Counted from the first letter of the stretch, positions 41,467 through 58,940 are shown. The stretch: DNA of 59,301 nt from an uncultured Eubacteriales bacterium (GCA_959600635.1 CAUGMN010000005.1:1-59301); one strand, 5' to 3'. Notes: generated by a model not told the origin, from the letters alone. Numbers and translations: made by a program.

Positions 41467-42624
41467 ATGGAAAAGTTTTCATTTTACGCGCACGGCGGCA
41501 GTCAAAATCACGGCTGCGAGGCCATCGCGCGGACGAGCGCCAACATGCTCGGCGGCGGGGTCACGCTTTACTCCCAGTCGCCGGAGGAGGATCTGGCCTA
41601 CGGGCTGGACGCCTTGATGAAGGTAGAAAAATGCGGCGATCGCGTGCGGCGCTATTCGCCGCGCCATATTGCCTATAAGCTTTGGAGCTATGTCGGGGGG
41701 ATGGACGCGCGCTATCGCTACGAATACCGGCGTTTTCTGGAAAACGCTTCCGGCCTCTGCCTGTCCATCGGCGGCGACAACTATTGTTACGATTATCAAT
41801 GGCTGCTGGCGGTCAACCGCGCGGTTGCCGCGCAGGGCGGCAAGACCGTGCTCTGGGCCTGCTCCATCGAGCCGGACGCGCTGAAAGACGGGGCGCTGTT
41901 GGCCGATCTGCAATCCTATTCGCTGATCACCGCGCGCGAGTCGCTGACCTATGAGGCGCTGTTGGCCGCGGGTATTGAAAAACACACCCGCCTGTTTCCC
42001 GATCCCGCGTTCACGCTGGCAACGGCGCGCGCTTTGTTGCCGGAGGGATTTCACGATGGAAATACCGTAGGGGTGAATTTGAGCCCGCTGATTATGTCCT
42101 GCGAGACAAAGGAAGGGGCGGCCTTCCGAAACTTTGAGGCGCTTATCGAGCATATCCTCCGTACGTCGGACATGCAGGTGGCGCTGATTCCGCATGTCGT
42201 CTGGGCCTATAACGACGACCGCAAGCCGCTGCGCGCCTTGTACGAACGGTTTGCGGATACCGGCCGCGTCGTTTTGATCGGGGACGCGGGCGCCGAGGAA
42301 CTGAAAGGCGTCATCGCCCGCTGCCGTTTCTTTATCGGCGCGCGCACACACGCGACCATCGCCGCCTATTCCTCCTGCGTCCCGACGCTGGTGGTCGGCT
42401 ATTCCGTCAAGGCAAAGGGGATTGCCAAGGATTTGTTTGGAACGTATGAGCGCTATGTTCTGCCGGTGCAGTCGCTTTCGCGCGAGGAGGAGCTGACCGA
42501 GGCGTTTACATGGCTGACCGAACAGGAAAAAGAGATCCGCGCGCACCTGCAAACGCTCATGCCGGAATACGTCGCACGCGCTTACGGCGCGGCGGAAGAG
42601 GTCAAAAAGCTCTATGAACGGTAA
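41467..42624 (+). CDS. polysaccharide pyruvyl transferase family protein
   Basis: 385 aa. N-terminal GGSQNHGCEAI, and C-terminal RFFIGARTHATIAAYS typical of the PS_pyruv_trans (CsaB/WcaK-like) family. Confidence 0.8.
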   Translation: MEKFSFYAHGGSQNHGCEAIARTSANMLGGGVTLYSQSPEEDLAYGLDALMKVEKCGDRVRRYSPRHIAYKLWSYVGGMDARYRYEYRRFLENASGLCLSIGGDNYCYDYQWLLAVNRAVAAQGGKTVLWACSIEPDALKDGALLADLQSYSLITARESLTYEALLAAGIEKHTRLFPDPAFTLATARALLPEGFHDGNTVGVNLSPLIMSCETKEGAAFRNFEALIEHILRTSDMQVALIPHVVWAYNDDRKPLRALYERFADTGRVVLIGDAGAEELKGVIARCRFFIGARTHATIAAYSSCVPTLVVGYSVKAKGIAKDLFGTYERYVLPVQSLSREEELTEAFTWLTEQEKEIRAHLQTLMPEYVARAYGAAEEVKKLYER

Positions 42625-44158
42625 AATCAATCAGCTCCGCGCGGGCGTCGTGCTCACCTATGTGTCTCTCGGCGTCGGCTATCTGGTGTCGATGGTCTTC
42701 ACGCCGGTGATGATCCGCATGCTCGGGCAGAACGAATACGGGTTGTACACGCTCGTGCTGTCCGTCGCCGCGTACTTGAACCTGCTCAATTTCGGCTTCG
42801 GAGCCTCATATATGCGCTTTTACGCGCGTTTCCGCGAACACGGCACGGAAGACGATATCAAGCGTCTGAACGGGCTGTTTTTGCTGACCTTCATTGTCAT
42901 CGCCGCCGTCGCGCTCGCAGCGGGGCTGATGGTCGCCGAAAACGTGGATCTGCTGAAAAAAACGCTGACGCCCGATGAGGTCGCCAGAGCGCGGGTGCTG
43001 ATCCGCGTGCTGTCAATCAACCTCGCGTTTACGCTGATCGCCAGCGTTTTCACCTCGTTTATCACCGCGCAGGAGCGCTTTGTCTTTCAGAAGAGCGTCC
43101 AGATCGTCAAAAACCTGCTGTCGCCTGTCGCCATGCTCGCGGCGCTGCTTTTGGGCTATGCTTCGTTCGGCCTCGTCGTCGTCACGCTGGCGCTGACCGT
43201 ACTGACCGACGCCTGCAATATCTGGTACTGTCTCAAACGCCTCGGGATGCGCTTCCGCTTTTCGGGTCTGCGCTGGGGATTGTTCCGCGAAATCGCCGTC
43301 TTTTCCTCGTTTATCTTTATCAATATCGTCGTCGATCAAATTAACTGGAACGTCGGCAATATCCTGCTCGCCGCCTACCACGGCACGCTGCTCGTCTCCG
43401 TTTTCGGGCTGGCGTCGCAGCTCAACAACTACTACGTCTCGTTTTCCACGGCGGTCTCCGCAGTGTTTGTCCCCAAAGTGAACACGCTGATCGCCAAAAA
43501 CAGCGACAGCGATCTCACAGAGCTGTTCATCCGCGTCGGCCGCGTTCAGTTTTTGATTCTTATGCTCGTCTGCACCGGTTTTGTGCTGTTCGGAAAGCCC
43601 TTTATCGCCCTGTGGGGCGGACCGGGCTACGAGGACGCGTATTATGTCGCGCTGCTGCTGATCGTGCCGGTCACCGTGCCGTCGATTCAGAACATCGGCA
43701 TTGAGATCCAGCGCGCCAAGAATATGCACCGGTTCCGGTCGCTGGTCTATATCGTCATGGCGGCGGTCAACGTGCTCATCGGCGTGCTGCTCTGCCCACG
43801 CTACGGCGCGGTCGGCTGCGCGGCCGGCACGGCGCTCTCGCTGATTCTCGGCAACGGCGTCATCATGAACATTTACTATCACCGCAAAATCGGACTGGAC
43901 ATGATCCGCTTCTGGAAGAGCATGCTCTCGTTTGTGCCGGCGCTCCTCGCGCCGCTGGCGGCAGGCGTTTTGCTGGCGGTGTTCGTCGATACGTCGAGGC
44001 CGCTTTGGCTGGTCGCCTGTATCGCCGCTTATGCCGCCGTATACTGCGCTTCCATGTGGCTGATCGGCATGAATTCGTATGAAAAAAGCTTGATTTCAAG
44101 GCCGGCTGCGAAGCTTTTTCGCCGCCTGACCGGCCGAAAAGCAGAGAGAAAGGGTTGA
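42614..44158 (+). CDS. Wzx-type oligosaccharide flippase (MOP superfamily)
   Basis: 514 aa with about 12-14 TM segments. N-terminal LGQNEYGLY motif. Overlaps the upstream gene by 11 nt. Confidence 0.8.
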   Translation: MNGKINQLRAGVVLTYVSLGVGYLVSMVFTPVMIRMLGQNEYGLYTLVLSVAAYLNLLNFGFGASYMRFYARFREHGTEDDIKRLNGLFLLTFIVIAAVALAAGLMVAENVDLLKKTLTPDEVARARVLIRVLSINLAFTLIASVFTSFITAQERFVFQKSVQIVKNLLSPVAMLAALLLGYASFGLVVVTLALTVLTDACNIWYCLKRLGMRFRFSGLRWGLFREIAVFSSFIFINIVVDQINWNVGNILLAAYHGTLLVSVFGLASQLNNYYVSFSTAVSAVFVPKVNTLIAKNSDSDLTELFIRVGRVQFLILMLVCTGFVLFGKPFIALWGGPGYEDAYYVALLLIVPVTVPSIQNIGIEIQRAKNMHRFRSLVYIVMAAVNVLIGVLLCPRYGAVGCAAGTALSLILGNGVIMNIYYHRKIGLDMIRFWKSMLSFVPALLAPLAAGVLLAVFVDTSRPLWLVACIAAYAAVYCASMWLIGMNSYEKSLISRPAAKLFRRLTGRKAERKG

Positions 44159-45318
44159 CCGGGTTGCATTTTCCCATCGAAGGACAGAGCGCCTGCACAG
44201 GCTGCGGCGCCTGCGCGCTGCGCTGTCCAAAAGGCTGTATTGAAATGAATCCCGATGCAGAGGGCTTTTTCTGTCCGGTGATCGACGAGGAAGCGTGTGC
44301 GGACTGCGGCGCCTGCGCGGCGGTTTGTCCGGTCAACCACCGGCCGGAGCTGCCGAAAGCGCCGGAGGCCTATGCGGCGTACAGCCTCGACGAGGCGGTG
44401 CGCCGGGGCAGCTCGTCCGGCGGCGTCTTCACGGAGCTGGCCGCGACGGTGCTGGCTGGGGGCGGTACCGTCGCGGGGGCGGCGCTGGAAACCGACGGCG
44501 TTGTGCGCCATATCGTCGTCGAGGACGAGGCGGGGCTCATGAAGCTACGCGGTTCAAAATATGTGCAGAGCGAGGCGTGGCATGTCTATGCGCCGGTACG
44601 GGCGCTGCTCGAAAGCGGCCGCGCGGTGCTGTTCACGGGAACGCCGTGCCAGGCGGCCGGGCTTGCGGCCTATCTCGGCCGCCCGTACGAGCGGCTCGTG
44701 ATCGCCGACCTGATCTGTCACGGCGCGCCGTCGCCGGCCGTCTGGAAAAGATATCTGGATTTCCGCGCCGGACAAGCCGGCGCGCCGCTGCGCCATGCCG
44801 AGTTTCGCAACAAAGACGCGGGCTGGAAGCGCTACCGCGTCAAGCTGCGCTTTGAAAACGGCCGTGAATACAGCGCCGCGGCGGCGGCCGACCCGTATAT
44901 GCGCGCTTTTCTCAAAAACGCCTCGCTGCGGCCGTCGTGCCACGACTGTTCCTTTAAGGGCGCGCACCGCGCCGCCGACCTGACGCTCGCCGATTTCTGG
45001 GGCGTGGAAAAACTGCAACCGGCGTTGGGGAGCGGCGACGAGGGCGTGTCGCTCGTGCTCGTCCACACGGACAAGGGCGCGCGCCTGCTGAAAGACAGCG
45101 CCGCGCGGCTCTGTCTGGCTGAGACGGAGGCGGCGCCCGCGCTCGCGGAAAACGCTTCCTATCACCGCTCGTCGCCGGTTCACCGCCATCGCCCGCGCTT
45201 CTTCGCCGAGCTGCACCGGCAGCCCTTTGACCGCCTCGCCGGCCGGTATTGCCGGGATGGTTTCGCGCAGCGGCTGCGGGCGCTGGCGGGAAAGGTAAAA
45301 CGCCGGATTTTCCGGTAG
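44155..45318 (+). CDS. FrhB-like (coenzyme F420 hydrogenase/dehydrogenase beta family) protein with N-terminal 2x[4Fe-4S] ferredoxin domain
   Basis: TTG start overlaps the flippase stop. Contains CTGCGACALRCP and CADCGACAAVCP, then GSSSGGVF, KYVQS and FTGTPCQAAGL. Confidence 0.7.
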   Translation: MTGLHFPIEGQSACTGCGACALRCPKGCIEMNPDAEGFFCPVIDEEACADCGACAAVCPVNHRPELPKAPEAYAAYSLDEAVRRGSSSGGVFTELAATVLAGGGTVAGAALETDGVVRHIVVEDEAGLMKLRGSKYVQSEAWHVYAPVRALLESGRAVLFTGTPCQAAGLAAYLGRPYERLVIADLICHGAPSPAVWKRYLDFRAGQAGAPLRHAEFRNKDAGWKRYRVKLRFENGREYSAAAAADPYMRAFLKNASLRPSCHDCSFKGAHRAADLTLADFWGVEKLQPALGSGDEGVSLVLVHTDKGARLLKDSAARLCLAETEAAPALAENASYHRSSPVHRHRPRFFAELHRQPFDRLAGRYCRDGFAQRLRALAGKVKRRIFR

Positions 45319-45376
45319 GACGCGCCGACGGCCTGTCCGAGAGAAGCTCTATACGGGCGGAGGGGAGTGCGGAATC

Positions 45377-46093
45377 ATGACGCTCATTCGGGCGATTATG
45401 GAATACAACGCGGACGGATGCCTGCTTTACGCTGAGAATTTTACCGGCGCATACGCGCGAGGGAAAGATCTGGCGGAGGCTGCGGCAAAATTTCCCGACG
45501 AAATTCGCCGCTACCGGCGCTGGCTGGGGGAAGCCGGCGCCGACGGAGAACCCTGTGAGGTACAGGTCGTTGAGAAAAAGGAGAGCCGCCTGCAAGTCTG
45601 CGATGCGGACAGCGACGTGCTGTTTCACAGCGAGCGGGCGCCGCTGAGCCGGGAGGAATACACGGCGCTGAGAGATCTCGCGCTCAGATCCGCGGAGGAT
45701 TTTCAGCGCCTTTACGATTCCATTGCCGATAAAACCCATACCGTATTGTCTCCGCGGAAAACCTTTTACGGCGACGTGCCGCTGACGGCGGAGGCGATGT
45801 ATGCGCACACCCAAAACGTCAACGGCTATTACTTCGGCGAGATCGGCGTCGAGGCGGATAATGGGCCGGACATCGCGGCCTGCCGGAGAGCGGGCTTTGC
45901 GGCGCTGGAAGCGGCGGAAGGTTTTCTCCGCAATCCGGTATGGGACGGGAGCTGGGGCGAGCAGTGGACGCTGCGCAAGCTCTGCCGCCGTTTCGTCTGG
46001 CACGACCGTATCCACGCCCGGACGATGTACCGGATGGCGTCGAGACTCTGCGGCGCGGCCAAACCTGCCGATCCGTTCTGTTTTTCGCTCTGA
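45377..46093 (+). CDS. hypothetical protein (possible HicB-like N-terminal fold plus DinB-like C-terminal region)
   Basis: GGAGGGGAG RBS. 238 aa with no firm motifs. The domain suggestion is impressionistic. Confidence 0.55.
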   Translation: MTLIRAIMEYNADGCLLYAENFTGAYARGKDLAEAAAKFPDEIRRYRRWLGEAGADGEPCEVQVVEKKESRLQVCDADSDVLFHSERAPLSREEYTALRDLALRSAEDFQRLYDSIADKTHTVLSPRKTFYGDVPLTAEAMYAHTQNVNGYYFGEIGVEADNGPDIAACRRAGFAALEAAEGFLRNPVWDGSWGEQWTLRKLCRRFVWHDRIHARTMYRMASRLCGAAKPADPFCFSL

Positions 46094-47125: not shown

Positions 47126-47941
47126 ATGAAAGATATTTTGACAGCGCCTTTTGTGCAGGAAATGTGCGATACAACGGCGAATATGTACCGATTCGGCTGG
47201 GATGAGAGAAATGGCGGCAATATCAGCTATCTGCTGGATACGGAAACGGTCGCCGAATATCTTGACCTGAATCAGGTAGTGAGGACCATCCCGACCGGAT
47301 TTGAGGCAAAAGCGCTGATCGGGAAAATCTTTATTGTAACCGGTACGGGCAAATATTTTAAAAATATCAGGGTCGATCCTGAAAACTGTCTCGGTATCAT
47401 CCGGGTGGCGGAGGACGGCACAACCGCCGAGCTCCTTTGGGGATATTCAGACGGGGGAACGTTTACCAGCGAGCTGCCCGCGCATCTGATGAGCCATATG
47501 GCGAGGTTAGCGGTTGATCCGCAGAACAGAGTGGTGCTGCATAGTCATCCGACCAATACGCTGGCGATGAATTATATACACGAGCTGGACGAAAAAAAGT
47601 TTACTCATACATTATGGGAAATGTGTACGGAATGTATCGCCGTATTCCCTGACGGCGTAGGGGTTTTGCCGTGGATGCTCTGCGGAACAAACGAGATCGG
47701 ACAGGCGACGGCGGAAAAAATGCGCGAGTTCAGGCTGGTGATCTGGGGGATGCACGGTATCTATGGCGCGGGCAGAACCATGGACGAGGCCTTCGGTTTG
47801 ATTGAAACCGTAGAAAAGGCGGCGCAAATCTATATGCTCACCGCCCATCTGCCGCGGGTGAATACGATTCAGGACGCCCAAATGCAGCAGCTTGCTGAAT
47901 TTTTCCATGTGGATTACCGGAAAGACTTTTTGAATCTCTGA
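47126..47941 (+). CDS. rhaD: rhamnulose-1-phosphate aldolase (class II aldolase)
   Basis: N-terminus FVQEMCDTTANMYRFGWDERNGGNIS closely parallels enterobacterial RhaD. Contains HSHP. G+C looks lower by eye. Confidence 0.8.
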   Translation: MKDILTAPFVQEMCDTTANMYRFGWDERNGGNISYLLDTETVAEYLDLNQVVRTIPTGFEAKALIGKIFIVTGTGKYFKNIRVDPENCLGIIRVAEDGTTAELLWGYSDGGTFTSELPAHLMSHMARLAVDPQNRVVLHSHPTNTLAMNYIHELDEKKFTHTLWEMCTECIAVFPDGVGVLPWMLCGTNEIGQATAEKMREFRLVIWGMHGIYGAGRTMDEAFGLIETVEKAAQIYMLTAHLPRVNTIQDAQMQQLAEFFHVDYRKDFLNL

Positions 47942-48017
47942 GCGTGAGAAAAAGCCTGTATGGCCAACTGAACCGCGCCGCCGCGCGGCCAAGCGGACAG
48001 ATATAAAAAAACCATTT

Positions 48018-48059
48018 TCATGACTTGCGCCCTGCCATACGGCAGGGCGCAAGTCATGA
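48018..48059. terminator. 19-bp perfect hairpin between convergent rhaD and the ABC operon (bidirectional terminator candidate)
   Basis: TCATGACTTGCGCCCTGCC-ATAC-GGCAGGGCGCAAGTCATGA, with A/T-rich flanks on both sides. Confidence 0.7.
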
Positions 48060-48080
48060 GGCCGAAAATACGGGCGATGG

Positions 48081-48818
48081 CTATGCCTCGGAGCAGAGAA
48101 AACCGTCGCGCATGGTCAGCATGACGTCGCAGCTCCGTCCGATTTCGGAGGAATGGGTGATGATGATACAGATGCGCTGCTGCTCGTGGGCGAGGCGGTT
48201 GATGATATCGATGATGTTGCGGCTGTTCTCGTTGTCGAGGTTGCCCGTCGGTTCGTCGGCGAGGATGACCGCCGGAGACGGGGCCAGCGCCCGCGCAATG
48301 GCAACGCGCTGCTGCTCGCCGCCGGACAGCTTGGTGCTCCGCTTCGCGCCCAACGCCTCGCTCAGCCCCACCTCGGCGAGCAGCTCGTTGGCGCGCTTCT
48401 TTTTGTCGCCCGCATAGCCGCACAGCTCTAAGCTCAGCTCGACGTTTTCGCGCGCCGTGAGCTGTGGCAGCAGGTAGAACGACTGAAAGATCATGCCGAT
48501 GTTGTCGCGGCGGTATTTGTGGCGGTCCAGCTCGGCGACGCTCGCGCCGTTGAAGAGTACCTCGCCTTTCCATGGGACGTCCAGACCGGCCATCACCGAC
48601 ATCAGCGTCGTCTTCCCGGAGCCGGAACGCCCCATGATCGCGTAGCTTTTCCCCGGCGTGAACCGATAGTTCGCCTCCTTCACCGCCTCCACGTATCCCG
48701 CCGGCGACGGGTATCGGTAGCCCAGTCCACGTATCTCCAAGACTGTCTGATTTGCGTCCATATGCTCCGTCCATTCCTTTCCGCTCCGCGCCGAATGCGC
48801 GAAGTCCAGCGTAATCAT
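48081..48818 (-). CDS. ABC transporter ATP-binding protein (MacB/LolD/FtsE class)
   Basis: Walker [10 protein letters not shown], signature LSGGEQQR, Walker [12 protein letters not shown]. The ATG at 48818 overlaps the upstream stop (ATGA). An internal ATG at 48761 is an alternative start. Confidence 0.9.
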
Positions 48819-49648
48819 GACTTTGAATCGAGTTTTTCCAGAGAAAAAACGTTGAAATCCAGCCCTTTTTCTGCGGCATACGCGACAAAAGCCTCGTAGC
48901 TGCCGCTGATTTCGTATTCCGCTGAATCAAGCGGCACAACGGTTTCCAGACCGACCTCCGGAAGCAGCGATTGGCAGATCAGTCGGTAGTCGTCAAAGCT
49001 GACGACGGCGGTTTTGGCATCCGCAGCCTCCCAGCCGAAGTCGAGCACGCCGGCAGCCGTGATGCGTTCGCTGTACGGAAAGTCCTCCTCCAAGCTCGTT
49101 TCACCGAGGGCGTTCACGGACAGCCACATCGTCCCGATGGTTCCAAGCGGGACGCAGTCAATGTAGCGGTGCGCGGAGCCGCTGATCAGCGCGCCGCCTT
49201 TTTTCCACTCATCCTCGGCGATACCTGCCGCCTCCGTCAGAGCGGGCGACAGCCACGCGTACGGCCGGCGGGCCGTCAGCTCGCGGCCGTTGGAGAGACG
49301 CCACTGGATATCGCCGCTATAACCGTAAGGGAGGCCGAACACCGGCTCCTGTTCGTAAAGGAACGCGTCGTCGCTGTATGCGACGAGGCGGTAGCCGGTG
49401 GCGGGATCCCCCTCGCGGATCACCTCAGCGCTGAACAGATTCATGCTGCCGGTCATGCGAAAGGCGGTGACGGCCGGATAATCGGCCAGGAGTTGCGCCG
49501 TATATTCGTCGAGAATTTTGGGCGAATCGTGCGTACGCTGCGTGAGGCGAATCGTACAGACGGTTTCCCCTGAGCCGCCTGCACAGGCGGCGAGCGGCAC
49601 AAGCATGAGCAGCAGCGCCGCGAGCCGGAAAAAACGTTTGACGTTCAT
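48815..49648 (-). CDS. lipoprotein of unknown function, encoded inside the ABC operon
   Basis: GGAGG RBS. MNVKRFFRLAALLLMLVPLAAC carries a lipobox. The start overlaps the upstream stop (ATGA). Confidence 0.65.
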   Translation of the reverse strand: MNVKRFFRLAALLLMLVPLAACAGGSGETVCTIRLTQRTHDSPKILDEYTAQLLADYPAVTAFRMTGSMNLFSAEVIREGDPATGYRLVAYSDDAFLYEQEPVFGLPYGYSGDIQWRLSNGRELTARRPYAWLSPALTEAAGIAEDEWKKGGALISGSAHRYIDCVPLGTIGTMWLSVNALGETSLEEDFPYSERITAAGVLDFGWEAADAKTAVVSFDDYRLICQSLLPEVGLETVVPLDSAEYEISGSYEAFVAYAAEKGLDFNVFSLEKLDSKS

Positions 49649-51096
49649 ACGCCGTCCTCCCCTCCGCTCAGTATTTCCATCGGCTCCGTGCGCATGATGC
49701 GCGTCCAGCACAGCAGCAGCGCGACGCCGGTTACGGCGAGGCCGCCGCCGAGAACGCAGAGTAAAATCGCGGAGTCGCCGCCGCCGTTCAGGTGGATTTC
49801 GATGGCGGCGCTGTCCGCTGCGTCCTGTTCGCCAAGCAGGGTGAACGCCTGCTGTCCGGCCTCCGGTTCCGTTTCGGCCGCGACGCTGCGGTTCAGATAG
49901 GACACAAAGCCTCTGCCGCCGGCCGAACCGATCAAAAAGCCGACGACGAGCGCGCAGAGGACGATCACACCCAGCTCCGCGGCCAGAGCGGCGAGCACCT
50001 TGGCCGGACGGCTGCCGAGCGCGCGGAGAATCCCGATTTCTTTGGCGCGGTTGGCCGTAAAATTGACGATCAGCAGGAAAAAGATCAGCAGACCGGCGGT
50101 CAGGATCACGGCGGTAAAGACTGCGGTGACGGTCGTCAGATCGTCGAGCCGCGCTGTCAGCTGTTTATACACCTTGTCGTTGGCGGTAAGCTTGAATTTG
50201 CCGAGATCAAAACCGCTGTCTGCCGTCTCCTGAATAAAAGCCGCGGCCGTGTCGCCGCGGTAGAGCAGCAAATCGGCGCGCTCGAAGGTGAAATTGTCGT
50301 CGTAATGCTCGTAGCGGATCGGATAGTTGGCGTCGCTTGTACCCGAACGGTCTGCGATCTGCGGGAACAGGTACCACATGTTGGCGTCGAGAGAGGTGAA
50401 GGCAAGCCGCGCCTCCTCCCCGTCGCTGTCATAGAGACCGCAGACGGTCATGGAGCAGAAATAGTTTTCGCGGTGCAGCGTAACGGTGTCGCCGACGGAG
50501 AGCCCATGCGCTCCGGCGTAGGCTGACGGAATCAGAATGTCGTCGGCGTATCCCGTTTCCGGCGTTGCGCGGCGCGGAAAGCGGCCCGCGCTGAGCCGGA
50601 AGGTCGCGTCGGCAAAGGCGTCGTAAAGCGGCACCGAGGAAGAGGCGATGACAGTGAGCGGCGCGCCTAACAAATTTGGCGAGAGAATTTCCGGCGCCTG
50701 CGAGGCGCCGGCCTGTTCGTAAAGCGCCGCAACGTCCGCCTGCGCGTCTACCACGCCGCCAATTTCAGCGCCGTACAGCGCGGGAATGTGGACGCCGCAG
50801 TCCTTGACATAGGGGGAACGCAGCAGCGTCTGTACGTCGGCAATGGTCACGTTGGGGTTGGCCTCCTGCATTGCCCCGCCTTCTTCGTTTGTCTTGGCCT
50901 CGGCGGCGCGCGGCTGAACCGTTACCGTGACCGGCGTTTTCAGCCGGATCCGCTCGGCCTCCGAGGCTGTGGAACGGGCGGAGATCAAGCCGACGACCGC
51001 AGCCGCAGAGAGCAGAAAAAGCACGGCGAACAGCGCCAACGAGCGGAATTTCATGCGCCAGAGGTTTCGCAGGGCGTATTTCAGCAGCGCTTTCAT
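49645..51096 (-). CDS. FtsX/MacB-type ABC permease with large extracytoplasmic domain (permease 2)
   Basis: TM1, then a ~270 aa loop, then three C-terminal TMs carrying RAKEIGILRALGSRP (FtsX domain). ATGA overlap with the upstream gene. Confidence 0.8.
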   Translation of the reverse strand: MKALLKYALRNLWRMKFRSLALFAVLFLLSAAAVVGLISARSTASEAERIRLKTPVTVTVQPRAAEAKTNEEGGAMQEANPNVTIADVQTLLRSPYVKDCGVHIPALYGAEIGGVVDAQADVAALYEQAGASQAPEILSPNLLGAPLTVIASSSVPLYDAFADATFRLSAGRFPRRATPETGYADDILIPSAYAGAHGLSVGDTVTLHRENYFCSMTVCGLYDSDGEEARLAFTSLDANMWYLFPQIADRSGTSDANYPIRYEHYDDNFTFERADLLLYRGDTAAAFIQETADSGFDLGKFKLTANDKVYKQLTARLDDLTTVTAVFTAVILTAGLLIFFLLIVNFTANRAKEIGILRALGSRPAKVLAALAAELGVIVLCALVVGFLIGSAGGRGFVSYLNRSVAAETEPEAGQQAFTLLGEQDAADSAAIEIHLNGGGDSAILLCVLGGGLAVTGVALLLCWTRIMRTEPMEILSGGEDGV

Positions 51097-52505
51097 TTTT
51101 TACCGGCTCCTTTCAACAGCGTCATCGCGTCCAGATGCGCCGTCTGCGCCGCGGCGGCGAGACTGCCGCAGCAGACCGCGGCGAACAGCAGCGCCGCCGT
51201 TTTCAGAACAGAGGCGCGCGACAGCAGCTCCATACCGCTTCGCCTTGCCGCCGCGACGACGGGCATCGCGCCGGTCAGAACGGTGGAATCGGCGGTGTTT
51301 TCGATCTGCGCCGCCATTCGGCTCTCCATAAGCCATGTTTGCACGCCGCCGCCGAAGAGCTGCGCCGCGCCGGCCGCAAGCGCGAGCGCGGCCAGAAGCG
51401 CGACGAGAGCGATCAGCAGGTTTTCTACAAAAAACTGTGCGGAAATCCGGTTGTTTTTCAGGCCGAGCGCGCAGAGAATCCCCGTCTCGCTCATGCGTTC
51501 CCGGCGGTTCTGCCAGCAGAGAATCAGCGTCAGGCAGAACAGGACGACAGTGAGCGCGGCGACGGTCATGTAGGTGAAGGAAGCGATCCGCGACACGGCG
51601 ATCGCCTGGGAATCCGGCGTGACCTTGGTCAGCGACGTGTCGGCGAGAAAAAAGTCTTCCAGCCGTGCCGCCAGATTGTCCGCGGCCGCGTCGCTTGTCA
51701 GCCGCAGGTGCAGCGTTGTGACCGGCAGGGAGAGGCGCAGCTGCGGCTGGTCTTCGTTCATGAGGCGGAAGAATTCCGCCGCAGTCTGTACGGGCAGATA
51801 AATGACGTTCTGCGGGACGGAATAGTCCCAGACAGCGCTTTTGTTTTCGATCTGAGAGCGGAACAGGCCGACGACGGTGAGATTCAGCATCGGCCTTGTC
51901 TCCATGTCGCTTTCCTGCTGGTCATACGGGATGCGGATGCCGACGATATCGCCGAGAGCGATGTGGTTGGCCTCGGCGACCTCGTCGGACAAAAGCGCGG
52001 TATAAGCGCGCGTGCCGTTGTCTTCGGCGGTCAGCTCGCGCCCCTCGGTGACGACGTAGGCGCCGGAGAAAAAGTCTTCGTCGGTTTCACAGGCGTCGAT
52101 ACCGATCATTCGGAACGGCGCGGCGTTGTAGTAGCCGTCAATCTCGGCGAACAGGATTTTTTTCTCGCCGCTCGTCCGCTTGACGCCGGTGAGCAGCGCG
52201 CCGTTGCGGTAAATATAAGCGGGATGCTCGGCGCGCGTCAGCGTGTCGCTGACGACGCCGAAGCCTTCGTCAAGCCGCAGGGCGATTTCACCCGGTATGG
52301 CGCCGCCGCCTTTGAGCGCACAGGCGTAGGTACCCTCCAACGGCCCCATGGCCGCTGAGATCAACCGGCCGCAGCATTCCGAGACGATAAAGGCAATCGT
52401 CAGCAGGCATGCGGACGCCGCGAGCACGAGAAACAGCCGCAGGCTGCGCCGGCGCAGCCGGACCACATTTTTTGCCGCGTGGGAAACGACGGAATAGCCC
52501 TTCAA
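51093..52505 (-). CDS. FtsX/MacB-type ABC permease with large extracytoplasmic domain (permease 1)
   Basis: TTG start 7 nt after AGGAGG, overlapping the upstream stop (TTGA). C-terminal RMSETGILCALGLK FtsX motif. Divergent from permease 2. Confidence 0.8.
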   Translation of the reverse strand: MKGYSVVSHAAKNVVRLRRRSLRLFLVLAASACLLTIAFIVSECCGRLISAAMGPLEGTYACALKGGGAIPGEIALRLDEGFGVVSDTLTRAEHPAYIYRNGALLTGVKRTSGEKKILFAEIDGYYNAAPFRMIGIDACETDEDFFSGAYVVTEGRELTAEDNGTRAYTALLSDEVAEANHIALGDIVGIRIPYDQQESDMETRPMLNLTVVGLFRSQIENKSAVWDYSVPQNVIYLPVQTAAEFFRLMNEDQPQLRLSLPVTTLHLRLTSDAAADNLAARLEDFFLADTSLTKVTPDSQAIAVSRIASFTYMTVAALTVVLFCLTLILCWQNRRERMSETGILCALGLKNNRISAQFFVENLLIALVALLAALALAAGAAQLFGGGVQTWLMESRMAAQIENTADSTVLTGAMPVVAAARRSGMELLSRASVLKTAALLFAAVCCGSLAAAAQTAHLDAMTLLKGAGKK

Positions 52506-53023
52506 TTCGTTTCCTCCTCTCCGATATGGGCGAGATAGCGTTGGCCGCACTGCTCCATACAGTCGGGGTCCATACAGTCGTATTGGTTATGCATACAGCG
52601 GATCAGCATGGAATGATAGCGCTGATTGCAAACCGCACAAAAACGGCTGGCGGGATGGTAATAGCCGTATATTTGGTTTCTCGAAGGCTCTATGAAGTAG
52701 CTGCCGAACGAGTGCTTTTCGATGACCGGTCCCTGGTCGCACTGGGCATTGGAACAGAGTTTCAGATGATACTCGTCCTTAGAATAGATCGGCGACTTCC
52801 ACGCTGCGGCCGGATAGACCATGTAGTACGAATGCTCGCACTGGTCAGCCTGATTGCGGAAAGCGCCCGGCGGCGTCAGAAACACGCCTTCAACCTCGAA
52901 AATGTCGTCGCTTTCTTCCGCTTTTGCCCATGGGCGGAAGCAGACGAGCGCTGCTGCGGCGAGCAGCAGCACAACCACAAGCAGATACGGCAGAATTCTT
53001 TTTTTCCTCTCTGCATTGCGCAT
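52502..53023 (-). CDS. membrane-anchored Cys/His-rich protein, unknown function
   Basis: AGGAGG RBS. N-terminal TM (ILPYLLVVVLLLAAAALVCF). The predicted ectodomain has 9 Cys (CSNAQC, CAVC, CMHNQYDCMDPDCMEQC) and 7 His. Confidence 0.6.
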   Translation of the reverse strand: MRNAERKKRILPYLLVVVLLLAAAALVCFRPWAKAEESDDIFEVEGVFLTPPGAFRNQADQCEHSYYMVYPAAAWKSPIYSKDEYHLKLCSNAQCDQGPVIEKHSFGSYFIEPSRNQIYGYYHPASRFCAVCNQRYHSMLIRCMHNQYDCMDPDCMEQCGQRYLAHIGEEETN

Positions 53024-53130
53024 GAACGCGCCTCCTTTCTAATGCCGGACCAAAAGCGCTTGGCTGAGAACCGCGGCTGTCCCGCATGGCTCCGGCCGAA
53101 GGGCATTGTCGCAGCCGTGTCGGCCGGCTT

Positions 53131-55137
53131 TTATTTTGTCACAAGCGGATGGTCAAACTCCGGGAGCAGGGTGTTGCCGTCGAGGTCGAGGCTTGTGAGG
53201 TTCGGGCAGCGGCGCAAAAGCTCCGCCTCGACCGCGCCGAGCGTCAGCCCGCAGTATTCCAGCGAGAGCGCGGTGAGTTGATCACGGCCTATATCGCTCC
53301 ACGCTTTGAGAAAATCAAGGCTCTTGACGCCGCACTGGTTTGCGGTCAGCTCGCCGATACCGTTGACGAGGGATATCGTTTCCTCGCAAATTTCCGTATG
53401 GCTGATATCAAGCGAACGGAAACGAAAAGAGTCCGCATTTTTCCCGACGCCAAGGCCCTCGATAGCCGTAAGGCGAGTGCTGGAAAGATCCAGGTAGATA
53501 TCAGAGCCTTGATTCGCCATCTCATGAAGCTTGTCGACGGATAAGGCAAACCTCGTCATCGGGTTGCCGGAAAGGTCGAGTGAGGCAAACCTTGCGCCGG
53601 CGAACGGTTCGCCGTCCTCGATCAGATTATCGGCAAGGGCGAGAGTGTGAACGGCGAGATCTTTCAGCGGCGAAACGTCCGCGATTTGATTGCCGGACAG
53701 ATCCAGAGACCGGCAAAGGCAGGTTTGGATGACAGGGAGCTCGGAAATGCGGTTGTATGGGAGATACAGCCCTTCCATCAGTATATTTTTCAGCAGCGGT
53801 TCGGCGCCGTCAAGCGAGGCGACGTCGTTGGAGCTGATGAGTAGCTGAGTTAAACTGTCAAACCAGAGAAAATCGTGGAGATTGTTGATTGGCTCCTGTG
53901 CAGAAAAGTTGGATCTGCGGGGAATCGACATAGCTGCATTCAGATGAATTTGGTCGCACTCGATTAAAATCGTGGCAATGCCGGTCAGGTCGGCCTTGGT
54001 CAGGCTGCCCTCCGGTTTGCCGATGTGAGTACGGACAGCTTTTTCAAGCCGCTCGCTTTTGAAAGCGACGGGCGTGTCAAGAAGCGGCGAGTTGTCGCGG
54101 ACAGGGACGTCGACGGAGCCGGAGAAGCCGTACTTGTTGGTGATTGTAACAGTGAGCCGGCCGAGAAAGGCGGCGGGAATGAAGATTTCTTCGCCGTCGG
54201 CGAGCGGAGTCGTGGAAACACCGCGCTCAGAGGTGGATATAACGGCGGTAGAGAACAGGCCGAGGCCGCCCAATGTAAAGCTGCGAAGACCGTACTCCTC
54301 GTAAACGGTTTCTGTGAGCGTCGGAGCGGAGACGAAATGGAGAGCCGCCAGCTCTTCCTCTGTGAGGAAGCGGTTGATATAGCCTTCATTTTTGACGCCG
54401 TCGCTCAGATTCTGAATCCGCGGCGTCAGCAGCTTAATTTTATAGGCTTCAATCATCAGCGGGACAATGCTTTCGTTGAGCGCATATTCGTTTCCGTCCC
54501 GGCGCAGCGGTATCATAAGCCATTCATCGCCGCCGAGGTATTCATAGCCCATGACATCAAAATATTTGCTGCTACTCCACGCGTTTAAAATGCGGATGAG
54601 GCGTGAAAAAACGAATTCGTCGGAGAGGTCGGGAGAAACGGGGGCAGGATCAGGCTGCTCGGGGCGGCGGAGCTTTTCGGCTTCGGCGGCGAGCGCCTCA
54701 TAATCCGCCGCGGCCTCGGGGCGACGCTTCGCGCATTCGCGGGCGTAAACGATGATCTGCGGCATATACCATAGCTGCTGCTCATACGCCTCGGCGGGAT
54801 CAAGAAAAAAAGCGGTGCCTACCGGGGGCTTTTCTTCGGAACTGTAAATTCGATCATTCAGCAAGGTCCAATCCAGTTCGACCGCCGGCGCGCCCTCGCT
54901 GGGATTATACGGGTCGGCCGGCTCGACCGGATCGGTAGCGGGCGGATCGGTCTGTACGGTGACATATCCGGTATTGACGGTCGTTGTTTGGGGAGGGTCA
55001 CCGCTTGACCCCTGTGCAACGGTTGTGTCGTCAGTGGTTTGAGCCGGGGCGTTTGTATCGCAGGCGGCCAAAACAGAGAGCAGGGCGGCGAGGCAGAGCA
55101 ACCCGCAGAGCAGACGGATCAGACAGCGACGTTTCAT
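53131..55137 (-). CDS. leucine-rich-repeat lipoprotein, paralog A
   Basis: AGGAGGG RBS with lipobox LAAC. About 400 aa N-terminal region of unknown fold, then LRR units (LDLSGNQIADVSPL, LDLSGNPM, LDLDGNTL). Confidence 0.8.
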   Translation of the reverse strand: MKRRCLIRLLCGLLCLAALLSVLAACDTNAPAQTTDDTTVAQGSSGDPPQTTTVNTGYVTVQTDPPATDPVEPADPYNPSEGAPAVELDWTLLNDRIYSSEEKPPVGTAFFLDPAEAYEQQLWYMPQIIVYARECAKRRPEAAADYEALAAEAEKLRRPEQPDPAPVSPDLSDEFVFSRLIRILNAWSSSKYFDVMGYEYLGGDEWLMIPLRRDGNEYALNESIVPLMIEAYKIKLLTPRIQNLSDGVKNEGYINRFLTEEELAALHFVSAPTLTETVYEEYGLRSFTLGGLGLFSTAVISTSERGVSTTPLADGEEIFIPAAFLGRLTVTITNKYGFSGSVDVPVRDNSPLLDTPVAFKSERLEKAVRTHIGKPEGSLTKADLTGIATILIECDQIHLNAAMSIPRRSNFSAQEPINNLHDFLWFDSLTQLLISSNDVASLDGAEPLLKNILMEGLYLPYNRISELPVIQTCLCRSLDLSGNQIADVSPLKDLAVHTLALADNLIEDGEPFAGARFASLDLSGNPMTRFALSVDKLHEMANQGSDIYLDLSSTRLTAIEGLGVGKNADSFRFRSLDISHTEICEETISLVNGIGELTANQCGVKSLDFLKAWSDIGRDQLTALSLEYCGLTLGAVEAELLRRCPNLTSLDLDGNTLLPEFDHPLVTK

Positions 55138-55243
55138 GAAAATTCCCTCCTGTTAGCAGAAACTTTGTGAATAATTAAAAAATACATCCTTGTCTATATA
55201 ATAATGTCGAAAAATATCGGATATACGGTGTGAACTGCGAAAA

Positions 55244-57250
55244 TTATTTTGTCACAAGCGGATGCTCAAACTCCGGGAGCAGGGTGTTTCCGTCGAGGTT
55301 GAGATTTATGAGGTTCGGGCAGCGGCGCAAAAGCTCCGCCTCGACCGCGCCGAGCGTCAGCCCGCAGTTCTGCAAGGAGAGCAAGGTCAGAGCGTCACGC
55401 TCCTGATCGTTCCAGTTTTTCAAAAAGTCAAGGCTGTCAACTGCGCTGCCGTCGGCAAAAATTCGTGAGCAGCCGCCGTAATACGACAGCTCATCCGAGG
55501 TGACACCGGTATAGGAGGCGTTGATCTCGAACAGACACGGCGGATTCGCCCCGTCGGGGTTATCAGGATCAATATAATCCTTTTTCGTCCCATAATCCAA
55601 GGCGGACAGCTTGGTAAAGGAACAATCGATGTAGTTGCCCATTCCTCTTAGACGGAGAGCGGTCAAAGGGTTGCTGGCAACATACAGATCCAAAACGAAG
55701 CAGCTTCCAAGGTCGATAGAGACGAGCTCGTTCTTTGACAGATCGAGTTTATTCAGCTCAATATTGCCGAGGTCGGGAAAGCGGGAAATGCCGTTACCGG
55801 CGAAAGAAAGCTCCGCACACCGAACGCCGTACAGCGGCGACAGATCGGTGATCTGGTTGTAAGAAAAGTCGAGGCACATGCTTCGGCCGAAATTTTTGAT
55901 GACCGGATCAAAGCCGCGGAGAGAAGTCAGGCCCTGCGCCGTCAGCCGTAACTCCGTCAGGTTTTCAAACCAGTAGAAATCGCTCGGGTCGCTGAGCGGG
56001 ACGGCGGCCTGAAAAGAGGTGATACCGCGGTCAACGATGCTTTGTTTGTTGATAACGAGCGTATCCAGATGTGCGTCGATGGAGGTGATTCCGGAGAGGT
56101 CGGCTCTGGTGAGCGCGCCGTCGGGATTCCCGAGATAGGTTCGGACAAACTGTTCCAAACGCGGGTTTTGAAATGTGACGGGCGTATCGAGCAGAGACGG
56201 AGCGGCGGCAACCGCGAGCGAAAACAGCTCGCCTGGTTCTCCGTAAGAATTGATGACCCGGTAGGTGATAAAGCCCTGATAGGCGCAGGGCAACCAGAAG
56301 ACGCCGTCGGAAAGTGTGTTGATAGCATAAAAATCAGATAGATTTTCAATCGGGTTCTCGGTCAGCTTAAATTCCAAGCGCCCGTTCGGCGGCATCGATT
56401 CGAGCAAAAAACGGCGCAGCCCATACGAGTCCGTCGTTTCGATGAGCGTACAGTCGCCGAACTCGCGATAGCCGGCGAGCTCTTCCTCCGTCAGAAAGCG
56501 TTCGAGGTGGCCGGCTTGAAATTGCTTGTAATTGTCATAGGGATACAAAAGACGCAGCGCCTGATAAATGTTGAGAATGACATTCAGCATTCCCTCCGCG
56601 ACGGGAAAATCGCCGCCGCGGCTGCAACTGATCCCGTCAACCAGCTTATAAGGCGAGCCGTTTTCGTCCGTATACTCCTGAACGGTACCGCCGTATGAAA
56701 AAAAGTAGGGCGTTGCATACCATGCGGACAAAACGCTTTTCAGACGCGAGAGCAGCTCGGCGTCGCTGAGATCGGCGGGAACAACGGGCATTGGCTGCGC
56801 AGGGTTGGCGAGGGCGCGGGCGGCGTCAGCGGCGGCGCGCAGAGACTCGGAGGCGTCAGAAAAACGTTCCGCACAGGCGGCGGCATAAGCTGCGAGCTGC
56901 GGCATATACCAGAGCGCATAAGTATATCCCTCGGTATAGAGCTGTTCTGCGTCGCCGTAGATAACGGTATAACCGATTTCGAATTCATCGATCTGATCTT
57001 GAAATTGCTGCATGAGCTCAATCATTGCCGGATCACGTTTGAATTCCGGCGCGCCCTCCGTGGGGTCGAAAACGTCCGGTTCTTCCGGCGGAACCGTCGC
57101 GACGGTGGTTGCGCCCGGCTGATAGCCGGTTGAGACGGCGGAGACGCCGGAACCGCCGTCAGTTGTGGTCAAGGGAGCATTTGTTGTACAGCCGGCAAAC
57201 GCGGCGAAAAGCAAAAAGACGGAAAGAAGAAAACAAATCGTTCGTTTCAT
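55244..57250 (-). CDS. leucine-rich-repeat lipoprotein, paralog B
   Basis: ATG at 57250 lies 6 nt after GGAG. Lipobox FAGC. Same architecture as paralog A. The last ~45 aa are nearly identical to A. Confidence 0.8.
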   Translation of the reverse strand: MKRTICFLLSVFLLFAAFAGCTTNAPLTTTDGGSGVSAVSTGYQPGATTVATVPPEEPDVFDPTEGAPEFKRDPAMIELMQQFQDQIDEFEIGYTVIYGDAEQLYTEGYTYALWYMPQLAAYAAACAERFSDASESLRAAADAARALANPAQPMPVVPADLSDAELLSRLKSVLSAWYATPYFFSYGGTVQEYTDENGSPYKLVDGISCSRGGDFPVAEGMLNVILNIYQALRLLYPYDNYKQFQAGHLERFLTEEELAGYREFGDCTLIETTDSYGLRRFLLESMPPNGRLEFKLTENPIENLSDFYAINTLSDGVFWLPCAYQGFITYRVINSYGEPGELFSLAVAAAPSLLDTPVTFQNPRLEQFVRTYLGNPDGALTRADLSGITSIDAHLDTLVINKQSIVDRGITSFQAAVPLSDPSDFYWFENLTELRLTAQGLTSLRGFDPVIKNFGRSMCLDFSYNQITDLSPLYGVRCAELSFAGNGISRFPDLGNIELNKLDLSKNELVSIDLGSCFVLDLYVASNPLTALRLRGMGNYIDCSFTKLSALDYGTKKDYIDPDNPDGANPPCLFEINASYTGVTSDELSYYGGCSRIFADGSAVDSLDFLKNWNDQERDALTLLSLQNCGLTLGAVEAELLRRCPNLINLNLDGNTLLPEFEHPLVTK

Positions 57251-57317
57251 AACAGACTCCATTGTTTGACGTGACGTGTAAAGGTGTTGAGATGAACTTC
57301 AAGAACGGAAATTTCAT

Positions 57318-57358
57318 CGTTCTCCTGCGCCGCACGCAATGTGCGGCGCAGAAGAACG
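57318..57358. other. 17-bp (one mismatch) hairpin with an upstream competing arm
   Basis: CGTTCTcCTGCGCCGCAC-gcaat-GTGCGGCGCAGaAGAACG. A third AGAACG copy at 57302-57307 could pair alternatively with CGTTCT. It lies 70-110 nt upstream of paralog B. Confidence 0.4.
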
Positions 57359-57600
57359 ATTTAAAAATTCATTTGAAAACAACCATAGGCATCTCATTCC
57401 TTTCTCAGGCGTTTCCTTTGAGGACGGAGCCCGTCTCTAAACAGACGCATGCATACAGGTAAATGAATCCTGAATACAATTATACAATATAAAAACATAA
57501 TAGTAAATATAAAACGAGAAATTATAATAAATTTGTTTAGACAAAAACGAGAATTTGATAAAGACGCGCGGAACAAAAATAACGTTCACCATTTCTTCTG

Positions 57601-57931
57601 TCACAGGCGGATGCTCAAACTCCGGCGCGCTCTCCGTGGGGTCAAAAACGTTCGGTTCTTCCGGCGGCTCCGTCGCGACGGTGGTTGCTCCCGACTGATA
57701 ACCAGTTGAGACGGCAAATGTGACGGAAAGGCCGCCGGACGTGGATCAAGCGATCTCTGCGGGTGCGACGTACCGCCGGGAGTGACAGCCGGCATACGCG
57801 GGAAAGAGCACGCTTATGCAGAGCAGCAGCGCCAAGCTGCTCCGGAAAAGCGATTTATAGCTTTTTTCTCCTGTCGGCCCTGTCAGCAAAAGCGTTGTGA
57901 ATGCGTGCGGACGGCCATACAGCACGCCCAT
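57601..57931 (-). pseudogene. internally deleted, degenerate third copy of the LRR-lipoprotein gene
   Basis: Signal peptide with lipobox (LLLCISVLFPAYAGC). In-frame TGA at 57737-57739. Then an N-terminal homology segment (STGYQSGATTVATEPPEEPNVFDPTESAPEF) is fused directly to the C-terminal end (EHPPV). Confidence 0.55.
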
Positions 57932-57941
57932 ATCTATATAA

Positions 57942-58055
57942 TGTCGAAAAACGTCGTATATACGGTATCGGCTAAAAGTTTTGTTTTTTCATAGGTTTCC
58001 GCCGCGCCCATACCGCCGAAAACAGACAGATTACGCGCGGCGGCCGCATTATAAT
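57942..58055 (+). promoter_or_regulatory. spoIIGA-sigE promoter region candidate with Spo0A-box heptamers
   Basis: TATAAT at 58050-58055, ~30 nt upstream of the GTG start. Near-consensus 0A box CGCCGAA at 58013-58019. Perfect TGTCGAA at 57942-57948. Confidence 0.4.
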
Positions 58056-58085
58056 GATATCGGTTCGGAAAACGGAGGGGTGCCG

Positions 58086-58940
58086 GTGGTTCTTTATCTC
58101 GACGTATTGATGGCGGTCAACCTGATGGCGGATTACGCGCTCCTGCGCGCTGCGGCAAAAATCACCGGACATATCCGCAACCGCCTCCGCATCTTCATCG
58201 CCGCGGCGCTCGGCGCGGCATACGCGGCGCTTGTCTGTATGCCGGCGCTGGAATGGCTCGGCCATTTTCTGATTCGGCTGCTGGTCGGCATTGCGATGAG
58301 CGCGATCGTATTCGGCCTGAACCGCGCCTGCGTGCGCAAAACGCTTGTGTTTTTTCTGCTTTCGTTTCTGCTCGGCGGCGCCGTATTGGCGCTGTCCTAT
58401 GCGGCGGGCGGCGCGGTCGGGCTTTACAACGGCGCTGTTTACATAAATACCTCGCTGCCGTCGCTGGCGCTGGTTGTCGCCGCGGTTTACGGCGTGGTCA
58501 CGCTTGTCTGCGCCGTCGGCGGCCGGCGGGCGCAGGCCATGCGGCGCGTACTGCCTGCGGTGGCGAAGCTCGGCGGGAGAGAGAGCGCGTTTTCCGTCTT
58601 GGCGGATACGGGCTGTTTGGTGCAGGATCCGCTGACCGCGCGGCCGGTCATGCTGGTTTCGCTGGCCGGCGCCGCCGCGCTGCTGCCCGAGGGAATGGCC
58701 AGCGCAATTGAGGAAGGGGCCGACGCCGCGGAGCTGATCGGCCGGTACGCCGGGCAGAGGCTGCCGCTCCGCCCCGTATTCTGCAAGGGGCTGGGCGGAC
58801 AGACGGAGATGCTCGTTTCTTTTCTGCCGGACAGCCTGACGGTGGACGGAAAACCGTGCGACGCGGTGATCGCGGTTACAAAGGACGGCCCGGACGGGGC
58901 GGAGGGCTTTTGCGCCGTTGTCAATTCGGACGCCGTATAG
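58086..58940 (+). CDS. spoIIGA: sigma-E processing peptidase SpoIIGA
   Basis: GTG start after GGAGGGG. VVLYLDVLMAVNLMADYALL is a polytopic N-terminal domain. C-terminal domain carries ADTG (LADTGCLVQDPLT). Located immediately upstream of sigE. Confidence 0.85.
   Translation: MVLYLDVLMAVNLMADYALLRAAAKITGHIRNRLRIFIAAALGAAYAALVCMPALEWLGHFLIRLLVGIAMSAIVFGLNRACVRKTLVFFLLSFLLGGAVLALSYAAGGAVGLYNGAVYINTSLPSLALVVAAVYGVVTLVCAVGGRRAQAMRRVLPAVAKLGGRESAFSVLADTGCLVQDPLTARPVMLVSLAGAAALLPEGMASAIEEGADAAELIGRYAGQRLPLRPVFCKGLGGQTEMLVSFLPDSLTVDGKPCDAVIAVTKDGPDGAEGFCAVVNSDAV

Follow-up and report, generated by a model that had tools for sequence, protein, structure and literature searches.

In a 59,301-nucleotide (nt) stretch of DNA from an uncultured Eubacteriales bacterium (GCA_959600635.1 CAUGMN010000005.1:1-59301; hereafter the window, with all coordinates counted from its first letter), a block at positions 48081–57931 encodes leucine-rich repeat (LRR) lipoproteins followed by a Cys/His-rich membrane protein, two FtsX-type permeases (Perm1 and Perm2), a lipoprotein and an ATP-binding cassette (ABC) ATPase. 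The best explanation of this block is that it represents one (module 1) of two paralogous envelope modules restricted to a single lineage, an uncultured Clostridiales species of the gut. It is a previously undescribed but coherent combination within the known MacB/FtsX machine class, and our literature search found no paper describing it. We favour, with even confidence, the reading that the module is a heteromeric type VII ABC mechanotransducer acting on the extracytoplasmic proteins encoded alongside it.

Evidence for this view comes from a second, deeply diverged copy of the arrangement. The single distant match to the block (contig L003) belongs to this second module, whose full form is present in contigs L018–L028 and comprises an LRR lipoprotein (686 aa), a Cys/His-rich protein (173 aa), Perm1 (471 aa), Perm2 (486 aa), a lipoprotein (286 aa) and an ATPase (225 aa), flanked upstream by a divergent gene for an extracytoplasmic function (ECF)-like sigma factor and downstream by purine-biosynthesis (pur) genes on the opposite strand. 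In both modules, start and stop codons overlap at the Cys/His–Perm1, Perm1–Perm2 and Perm2–lipoprotein junctions. Module 2 is in the same organism as module 1, because both are held by the metagenome-assembled genome (MAG) GCA_003149835.1 (module 2 on QAMX01000048.1, module 1 on QAMX01000088.1) and by two ENA assemblies, and because the pur genes match the window's composition. The alternative that L003 represents a second species was rejected on the co-occurrence in that MAG and on an ATPase gene 99.55% identical to that of module 1. The original prediction had proposed an uncharacterised envelope module, which is supported, and had tied the LRR genes to the ABC operon, a tie that gains real support from the retention in the paralogous module of the order LRR, Cys/His, Perm1, Perm2, lipoprotein, ATPase.

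The two six-part copies in one genome amount to a natural experiment, in which the outward parts have fallen to 28–53% identity and the motor has stayed identical. Between modules, protein identity is 30–32% for the LRR proteins, 35% for the Cys/His-rich proteins, 53% for Perm1, 46% for Perm2 and 28% for the lipoproteins; within Perm2 it is 36% in the ectodomain versus 57–68% in the transmembrane (TM) regions, and divergence is concentrated outside the membrane. By contrast, a 670-nt tract of the ATPase gene (48079–48748, minus strand) has 99.55% nucleotide identity with its module-2 counterpart (L018 7771–8440), running from 13 nt past the start codon to 2 nt past the stop codon between unrelated flanks. 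The few variable sites are polymorphisms common to both copies across strains (contigs compared include L018, L027 and L029), and no difference separates the pair in MAG GCA_003149835.1 over 454 comparable nt, although short-read assemblers can collapse such repeats. Near-identity of the ATPase genes amid modules only 28–53% identical, the unrelated flanks and the polymorphisms common to both copies indicate that the gene has been homogenised by gene conversion (concerted evolution), bounded almost exactly by the open reading frame (ORF). The near-identical copies also explain why many contigs end inside the ATPase gene, and why L001 is chimeric with an ftsE-like gene: an apparent strain variant (L001/L007 6723–7570) was rejected as an assembly chimera that switches at the ABC signature motif to an FtsE-like C-terminus and then to another gene. 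The ftsE-like sequence exposed by L001 reflects a true ftsEX elsewhere in the genome.

Characterised type VII ABC systems act on extracytoplasmic partners (PMC5985334, PMC11466899), and we propose a comparable mechanism here. Perm1 and Perm2 would form a heterodimeric MacB/FtsX-type complex with an ATPase dimer, in which ATP binding and hydrolysis in the cytoplasm would be relayed through the 4-TM bundles into movement of the two large ectodomains (mechanotransmission), and this movement would act on the co-encoded extracytoplasmic proteins. The translationally coupled Cys/His-rich protein (probably metal-binding) and lipoprotein would serve as fixed accessory subunits, and the LRR lipoproteins, together with secreted Cys/His-rich proteins in some strains, would be the clients or partners to be, for example, released, positioned or activated. 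Since every extracytoplasmic part has diverged, the two modules may have separate specificities, and since the ATPase gene is kept identical by gene conversion, they would share one interchangeable motor. Retention of all six gene types after duplication, with extracytoplasmic parts diverged and the motor homogenised, suggests that specificity resides in the LRR proteins, the Cys/His-rich protein, the ectodomains of the permeases and the lipoprotein acting jointly, as a co-evolving unit.

The features of the block and its boundaries are as follows.
48018–48059, minus strand: terminator hairpin of the operon, with a 19-bp stem, a 4-nt loop and a T-run on the minus strand
48079–48748, minus strand: 670-nt tract near-identical to the module-2 ATPase gene
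48081–48761, minus strand: ABC ATPase, 226 aa counted from the methionine at codon 20 (M20) of an ORF that extends to 48818
48815–49648, minus strand: orphan lipoprotein, 277 aa, lipobox LAAC, Cys22
49645–51096, minus strand: Perm2, a 4-TM FtsX-family permease with an ectodomain of ~275 aa
51093–52505, minus strand: Perm1, a 4-TM permease with MacB_PCD and FtsX domains and a TTG start preceded by GAGGAGG
52502–53023, minus strand: Cys/His-rich protein, 173 aa, with one N-terminal TM anchor and an ectodomain of ~135 aa
53024–53130, minus strand: 107-nt spacer between LRR-B and the operon, with a strong Shine–Dalgarno sequence (AAGGAGG)
53131–55137, minus strand: LRR-B lipoprotein, 668 aa, with lipobox LAAC, a Ser/Thr/Pro-rich linker, an N-domain and then internalin-like LRRs
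55244–57250, minus strand: LRR-A lipoprotein, 668 aa, with a lipobox-like FAGC (a looser match)
57316–57383, minus strand: relic of a deleted gene for a secreted Cys/His-rich protein, intact (194 aa) elsewhere among strains; what is left here is its final ~23 nt and its terminator hairpin (57316–57360, 20-bp arms)
57384–57600, minus strand: AT-rich upstream region whose best sigma-70-like match is TTTACT-17-TATAAT at 57507–57479
57592–57931, minus strand: what is left of a third gene for an LRR lipoprotein, in which the signal peptide and N-terminal linker run directly into a C-terminal PEFEHPPVT end, with the frame shifted

Seven minus-strand ORFs thus follow one another in the order LRR-A, LRR-B, Cys/His-rich protein, Perm1, Perm2, lipoprotein and ABC ATPase, followed by the terminator hairpin. 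Pfam recovers ABC_tran at 48081–48818, FtsX at 49645–51096, MacB_PCD with FtsX at 51093–52505, and LRR_4 at 53131–55137 and 55244–57262. As first described, the ~10-kb block lies wholly on the minus strand amid plus-strand genes, the remaining long minus-strand ORFs of the window being antisense shadows, with the exception of tyrS (13380–14609), the sole real long minus-strand gene elsewhere. Its proposed limits also held, with 19 pairs counted in the hairpin, which sits between a convergent aldolase gene and the ATPase gene, and with spoIIGA (Peptidase_U4, E 2e-45) at the other end, as did the claim that no terminator-like site on the minus strand interrupts the 107-nt gap separating LRR-B from the operon. 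The four proposed 4-nt overlaps are all present in the sequence (TTGA at 52502–52505; ATGA at 51093–51096, 49645–49648 and 48815–48818), but the last is doubtful as the start of the ATPase, and with it the stoichiometric coupling of the ATPase that had been suggested. Translation most likely starts at M20 (48761), because that is where both the paralogue and the conserved tract begin and because the copy annotated in the MAG has 226 aa; a start at M20 leaves a 53-nt gap (48762–48814) after the lipoprotein stop codon and no overlap. Rfam gave no match in 47800–58300, and PADLOC returned generic ATPase matches only for the block.

Membership of the type VII ABC (MacB/FtsX) superfamily follows from the FtsX domains, the four TM segments with a large ectodomain, and an ATPase whose motifs are intact (Walker A, Q-loop, LSGGE signature, Walker B as ILADEP and H-loop as ITH; ABC_tran 118.8 bits). 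FtsX (PF02687) scores 44.9 bits in Perm1 and 43.0 bits in Perm2 (cut-off 25.5), and MacB_PCD (PF12704) scores 38.4 bits in Perm1 (cut-off 27). In the Perm2 ectodomain MacB_PCD is undetected by Pfam, yet this region aligns with the Perm1 ectodomain (hhalign probability 83%, E 9.5e-6). Hydropathy places TM1 of both permeases at residues ~20–45, followed by a loop of 260–275 aa and three further TM segments, in agreement with the predicted pair of unlike MacB/FtsX-type permeases, each with a large extracytoplasmic TM1–TM2 loop, served by a single ATPase. The pair is old, as Perm1 and Perm2 are only 28% identical over 147 aa. The closest PDB sequences in profile searches were MacB (5gko/5lil), Spr0695 (5xu1_M) and YtrF (9o9x), at E about 1e-4, and a tblastn search of plasmids with Perm1 gave two marginal matches.

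Type VII ABC systems are understood through a few cases, namely MacAB, LolCDE, FtsEX, BceAB and HrtAB. The module described here is not a member of the LolCDE, FtsEX, BceAB, MacAB/Ykn-type or lactococcin-972-type systems, since tests for the defining features of each came out negative. The likeness to LolCDE that had been proposed, with LolCE being the example of a heterodimer given in reviews (PMC5985334, PMC8277102), is one of architecture: a single ATPase gene accompanies two unlike 4-TM permeases of the MacB type, an adaptor protein is lacking, and lipoproteins are obvious candidate clients. It fails at the level of sequence, as the ATPase falls below the cut-offs of the LolD models (equivalog TIGR02211, 178 bits against 307.75; NF008639, 165 bits against 360), NCBIfam gives no LolC/E match, and PDB profile searches return only MacB, Spr0695 and YtrF, with neither LolC nor LolE among the matches. 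Furthermore, the host is a spore-forming Clostridiales bacterium in whose contigs neither LolA/LolB nor an outer membrane is in evidence, and the module has two extra coupled subunits, the Cys/His-rich protein and the lipoprotein. A Lol-like machine in a monoderm, in which two client-specific lipoprotein-release systems would share one gene-converted ATPase motor, is decidedly improbable.

FtsEX (with EnvC, PcsB, CwlO or RipC) resembles the proposed mechanism in transmitting mechanical work to an extracytoplasmic partner rather than transporting a substrate across the membrane. It differs in that the FtsE model TIGR02673 gives 161 bits (cut-off 264.85), no FtsX-family NCBIfam model matches, and the candidate partners here are LRR, Cys/His-rich and lipoprotein components, not cell-wall hydrolase activators. 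In BceAB, a single 10-TM permease works with a BceRS-like two-component system, whereas two 4-TM permeases are found here with no histidine kinase or response regulator nearby. The original prediction had set two unlike permeases with one ATPase against the usual homodimeric modules of monoderms, but the arrangement is not without precedent there, as pneumococcal Vex123 shows (PMC9637936). In the vex123-pep27-vncRS locus, two different membrane subunits (Vex1 and Vex3) are encoded with the ATPase Vex2 and an adjacent small secreted peptide (PMC9637936, PMC6177237). That locus includes a two-component system and a 27-aa peptide, and has no LRR lipoproteins, Cys/His-rich proteins or lipoprotein subunit. 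Both membrane subunits, Vex1 and Vex3, are FtsX-family proteins.

MacB, Spr0693-0695, YknWXYZ and YtrEF share the MacB_PCD and FtsX architecture and include the closest solved sequences, at marginal similarity. MacAB/YknXYZ and Spr0693-5, however, need a membrane-fusion (HlyD-family) adaptor, and none is encoded on either side of the block in the window or near module 2; for module 1 this agrees with the earlier observation, upheld over ~10 kb on either side of the block, that both a two-component system and a membrane-fusion protein are lacking. MacB-type Gram-positive pumps and YtrEF are homodimeric, as are all type VII systems of B. subtilis (PMC11466899), in contrast to the two unlike permeases here. 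YknWXYZ has an extra small membrane protein and handles a Cys-containing exported toxin (PMC8277102). Another reading, in which the ABC genes encode a generic MacB-like transporter for efflux of, or resistance to, antimicrobial peptides or xenobiotics and the LRR genes are an unrelated surface-protein array next door, would fit the nearest solved relatives (MacB, pneumococcal Spr0695 and B. subtilis YtrF), the peptide resistance conferred by many Gram-positive FtsX-type ABCs (PMC5985334) and the difference between LRR and ABC genes in G+C at third codon positions (GC3). We nevertheless consider it quite unlikely: the LRR–Cys/His–ABC order outlived a duplication old enough for ~30% protein identity, no terminator separates LRR-B from the operon, neither module has a two-component system or membrane-fusion protein near it, and the permeases are in translational coupling with two exported accessory proteins dedicated to them.

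Both accessory proteins, the orphan lipoprotein and the protein with a Cys/His-rich ectodomain, are carried by the operon as first reported, and neither matches a domain library. The lipoprotein has no Pfam, NCBIfam or PDB relative, and its only homologue is the module-2 lipoprotein (28–33% identity). Exhaustive HMMER searches against 1.84 billion representatives gave four matches, one of them a true relative; among those rejected, P0005 is a 3796-aa repeat protein matching only through a repeated EPATGYRF motif, and P0006, a chimeric ORF of 148 aa, shows adaptor contamination in its MCIRDS and DVYKRQ stretches. The termini of the lipoprotein are modelled by AlphaFold as beta-alpha-beta units at a predicted local distance difference test (pLDDT) score of 44, and a Foldseek search with this model found nothing significant, with the MacB periplasmic domain (5lj8) ranked fourth at E 2.3. 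Together with an alignment to the C-terminal end of the Perm2 ectodomain (hhalign E 0.019), this gives only a hint that the lipoprotein is a free-standing MacB_PCD-like domain.

The operon's Cys/His-rich protein (CH173) has a short cytoplasmic N-terminus ahead of its TM anchor and is probably membrane-anchored rather than secreted, because its paralogue lacks the AXA site. That paralogue keeps C62, H64, H86, C90, C95, H104, H123, C129, C132, C143 and C159, including H-x3-C-x4-C and C-x2-C motifs. Pfam and NCBIfam gave no domain for this protein, and PDB sequence searches with the Cys/His-rich proteins found no match. That the module handles extracytoplasmic metal such as zinc, bound by the Cys/His-rich ectodomains, is suggested by the conservation of H-x3-C-x2-4-C...H and CxxC motifs between paralogues and by the 10 Cys and 7 His of the small exported proteins, and streptococcal LRR/histidine-triad lipoproteins would offer a parallel for the LRR lipoproteins. 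We regard this as very improbable, as no metal-transport, metallochaperone or metal-regulator domains are encoded nearby, MacB-type ABCs are not known as metal importers, and the significance of the Cys/His motif is unproven.

The LRR proteins score 44.4 and 28.8 bits with LRR_4 (cut-off 27), and their tandem 20–22-residue repeats find internalin A chains as best PDB matches (E 6e-8 to 3e-7). They differ from internalins in being lipid-anchored through a lipobox, not LPXTG- or GW-anchored, in an N-terminal region of ~340 aa whose fold is unknown, and in a C-terminal cap specific to the family, GNTLLPEF(D/E)HPLVTK. The start of LRR-A is more likely at 57250 than at 57262, since a Shine–Dalgarno sequence precedes that ATG. 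LRR-A and LRR-B are 36% identical as proteins, and their last 203 nt (53131–53333 and 55244–55446) are 83% identical in DNA; the end of LRR-B in L001 is 99% identical to the end of the window's LRR-A, which suggests local gene conversion within the array. Beyond LRR-A, a 61-aa ORF (57746–57931) was rejected as a gene in its own right, being part of the frameshifted, internally deleted third LRR lipoprotein gene, whose deletion junction falls where N-terminal linker and C-terminal cap share a short PEF microhomology.

Strains differ in what lies between the LRR genes. At window position ~57380, four strains carry a 632-bp segment encoding a 194-aa Cys/His-rich protein with a Sec signal (CH194), which in those strains is preceded by the AT-rich region at 57384–57600, and one strain has a 204-aa paralogue (CH204) between LRR-A and LRR-B (examples are L011 8635–9219 and L012 6254–6868, respectively, both on the minus strand). 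Across strains, genes for small Cys/His-rich exported proteins thus recur behind LRR genes, in the composite order LRR0 (the remnant), CH194, LRR-A, CH204, LRR-B, CH173, Perm1, Perm2, lipoprotein and ATPase. The locus shows strain-variable LRR and Cys/His cassettes at the surface of a bacterium common in the human gut.

This variation is one point in favour of a toxin or bacteriocin system with self-protection, in which the exported Cys/His-rich proteins would be antagonistic, the ABC transporter and lipoprotein would expel them or protect the producer, and the LRR lipoproteins would be binding or immunity partners. Strain-variable cassettes, tandem arrays and truncated remnants resemble polymorphic toxin/immunity loci, small Sec-signal Cys-rich proteins are encoded directly upstream of FtsX-type ABC genes, and precedents exist in YknWXYZ against SDP, AS-48EFGH against AS-48, and the MacAB-type export of a Sec-delivered Cys-rich enterotoxin (PMC5985334, PMC8277102). 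The lactococcin-972-type ABC model is the second-best NCBIfam match of the ATPase, yet TIGR03608 reaches only 175 bits against a cut-off of 254.85. Moreover, the Cys/His-rich proteins match no known toxin or bacteriocin domain, CH173 is probably anchored with an AXA site absent from its paralogue, 668-aa LRR lipoproteins would be unusually large as immunity proteins, and the window's strain lacks secreted Cys/His genes while keeping the whole ABC operon. We therefore regard a toxin system as unlikely.

Several points weigh against a heteromeric mechanotransducer acting on its co-encoded proteins. AlphaFold models of module proteins are poor (pLDDT 44 for the lipoprotein and 48 for LRR-B). Two homodimeric transporters drawing on one ATPase are possible. 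An H..C..C..H motif common to CH173 and CH194/204 suggests that they are homologous, but the statistics do not establish this (E 1.4 in BLASTP; E 0.006 in hhalign, with a probability of 6%; z of 0.4–2.7 against shuffled sequences). LRR genes are sometimes broken, by a C5-to-C4 frameshift in LRR-B of L008 (window position 54640) and by an in-frame TAG in the module-2 LRR gene of L003 (302–304); these breaks could be real inactivation or sequencing error, and because of them the LRR genes may be dispensable. Finally, the family is essentially confined to one species, which leaves no co-variation or phylogenetic profile to use.

This narrow distribution emerged from searches at several scales. 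Ten same-species contigs, from human-gut metagenomes and MAGs, were found via the window's exact SpoIIGA protein, and in 10/10 the block stands beside spoIIGA-sigE-sigG at 98.5–100% nucleotide identity; given its presence in all ten, the block is fixed in the species, not strain-variable. Raw nonsynonymous/synonymous variant counts of 0.5–1.25 across block genes are compatible with purifying selection on each of them, if somewhat looser on the lipoprotein and LRR genes. Word-indexed searches of 5.8 billion clustered proteins with the Cys/His-rich protein, the lipoprotein and Perm2 recovered only each protein itself and its paralogue. Scans of genome contigs with a Perm2 alignment and with SpoIIGA gave no match, nor did a viral scan, and a metagenome scan returned only the species' own contig. 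Across 15 billion proteins, relatives of the accessory proteins are all but absent, and these families appear confined to essentially one uncultured species. The locus defines three protein families without annotation, and with so narrow a scope its general importance is uncertain.

The block had been thought lower in G+C and accessory on compositional grounds, neither of which the data bear out: its G+C is 0.587, practically that of the window (0.588), GC3 in the ABC genes resembles that of host genes, and none of the ten same-species contigs lacks it. Its composition is instead bipartite. The ABC half has a G+C of 0.625 (genes 0.61–0.63) and GC3 of 0.73–0.84, against 0.774 +/- 0.052 for host genes, and lower G+C is limited to the Cys/His and LRR genes (0.53–0.57, GC3 0.65).

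The position of module 1 against spoIIGA-sigE-sigG, in a host whose contigs also carry spoIIAA-AB-sigF, had raised a possible link with sporulation, in the form of an FtsEX-like envelope-remodelling module expressed with spoIIGA-sigE. We consider this extremely unlikely. The block is transcribed divergently from spoIIGA, consensus scans found no sigma-E/K/F/G-like sequence upstream of it, and module 2 adjoins pur genes and the ECF-like sigma gene, not sporulation genes; the FtsE model also falls short at 161 bits (cut-off 264.85), and no hydrolase or coiled-coil activator partner is present. The ECF-like sigma gene itself (L018 370–930, minus strand, 186 aa) has weak Sigma70_r2/r4_2 matches and is divergent from the LRR gene in every module-2 contig, making its product a possible dedicated regulator. 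A comparison of modules 1 and 2 at k=9 found no shared upstream regulatory motif.

Two further observations concern neighbouring genes. A gene resembling aminoglycoside phosphotransferase (APH)/fructosamine kinase (40221–41234), with a G+C of 0.478 and GC3 of 0.51, lies far under the window mean and may be horizontally acquired. Upstream of the block, the genes at 41467–46093, encoding a polysaccharide pyruvyl transferase, a Polysacc_synt flippase and an FrhB-like Fe-S protein, are a surface-polysaccharide modification cluster.

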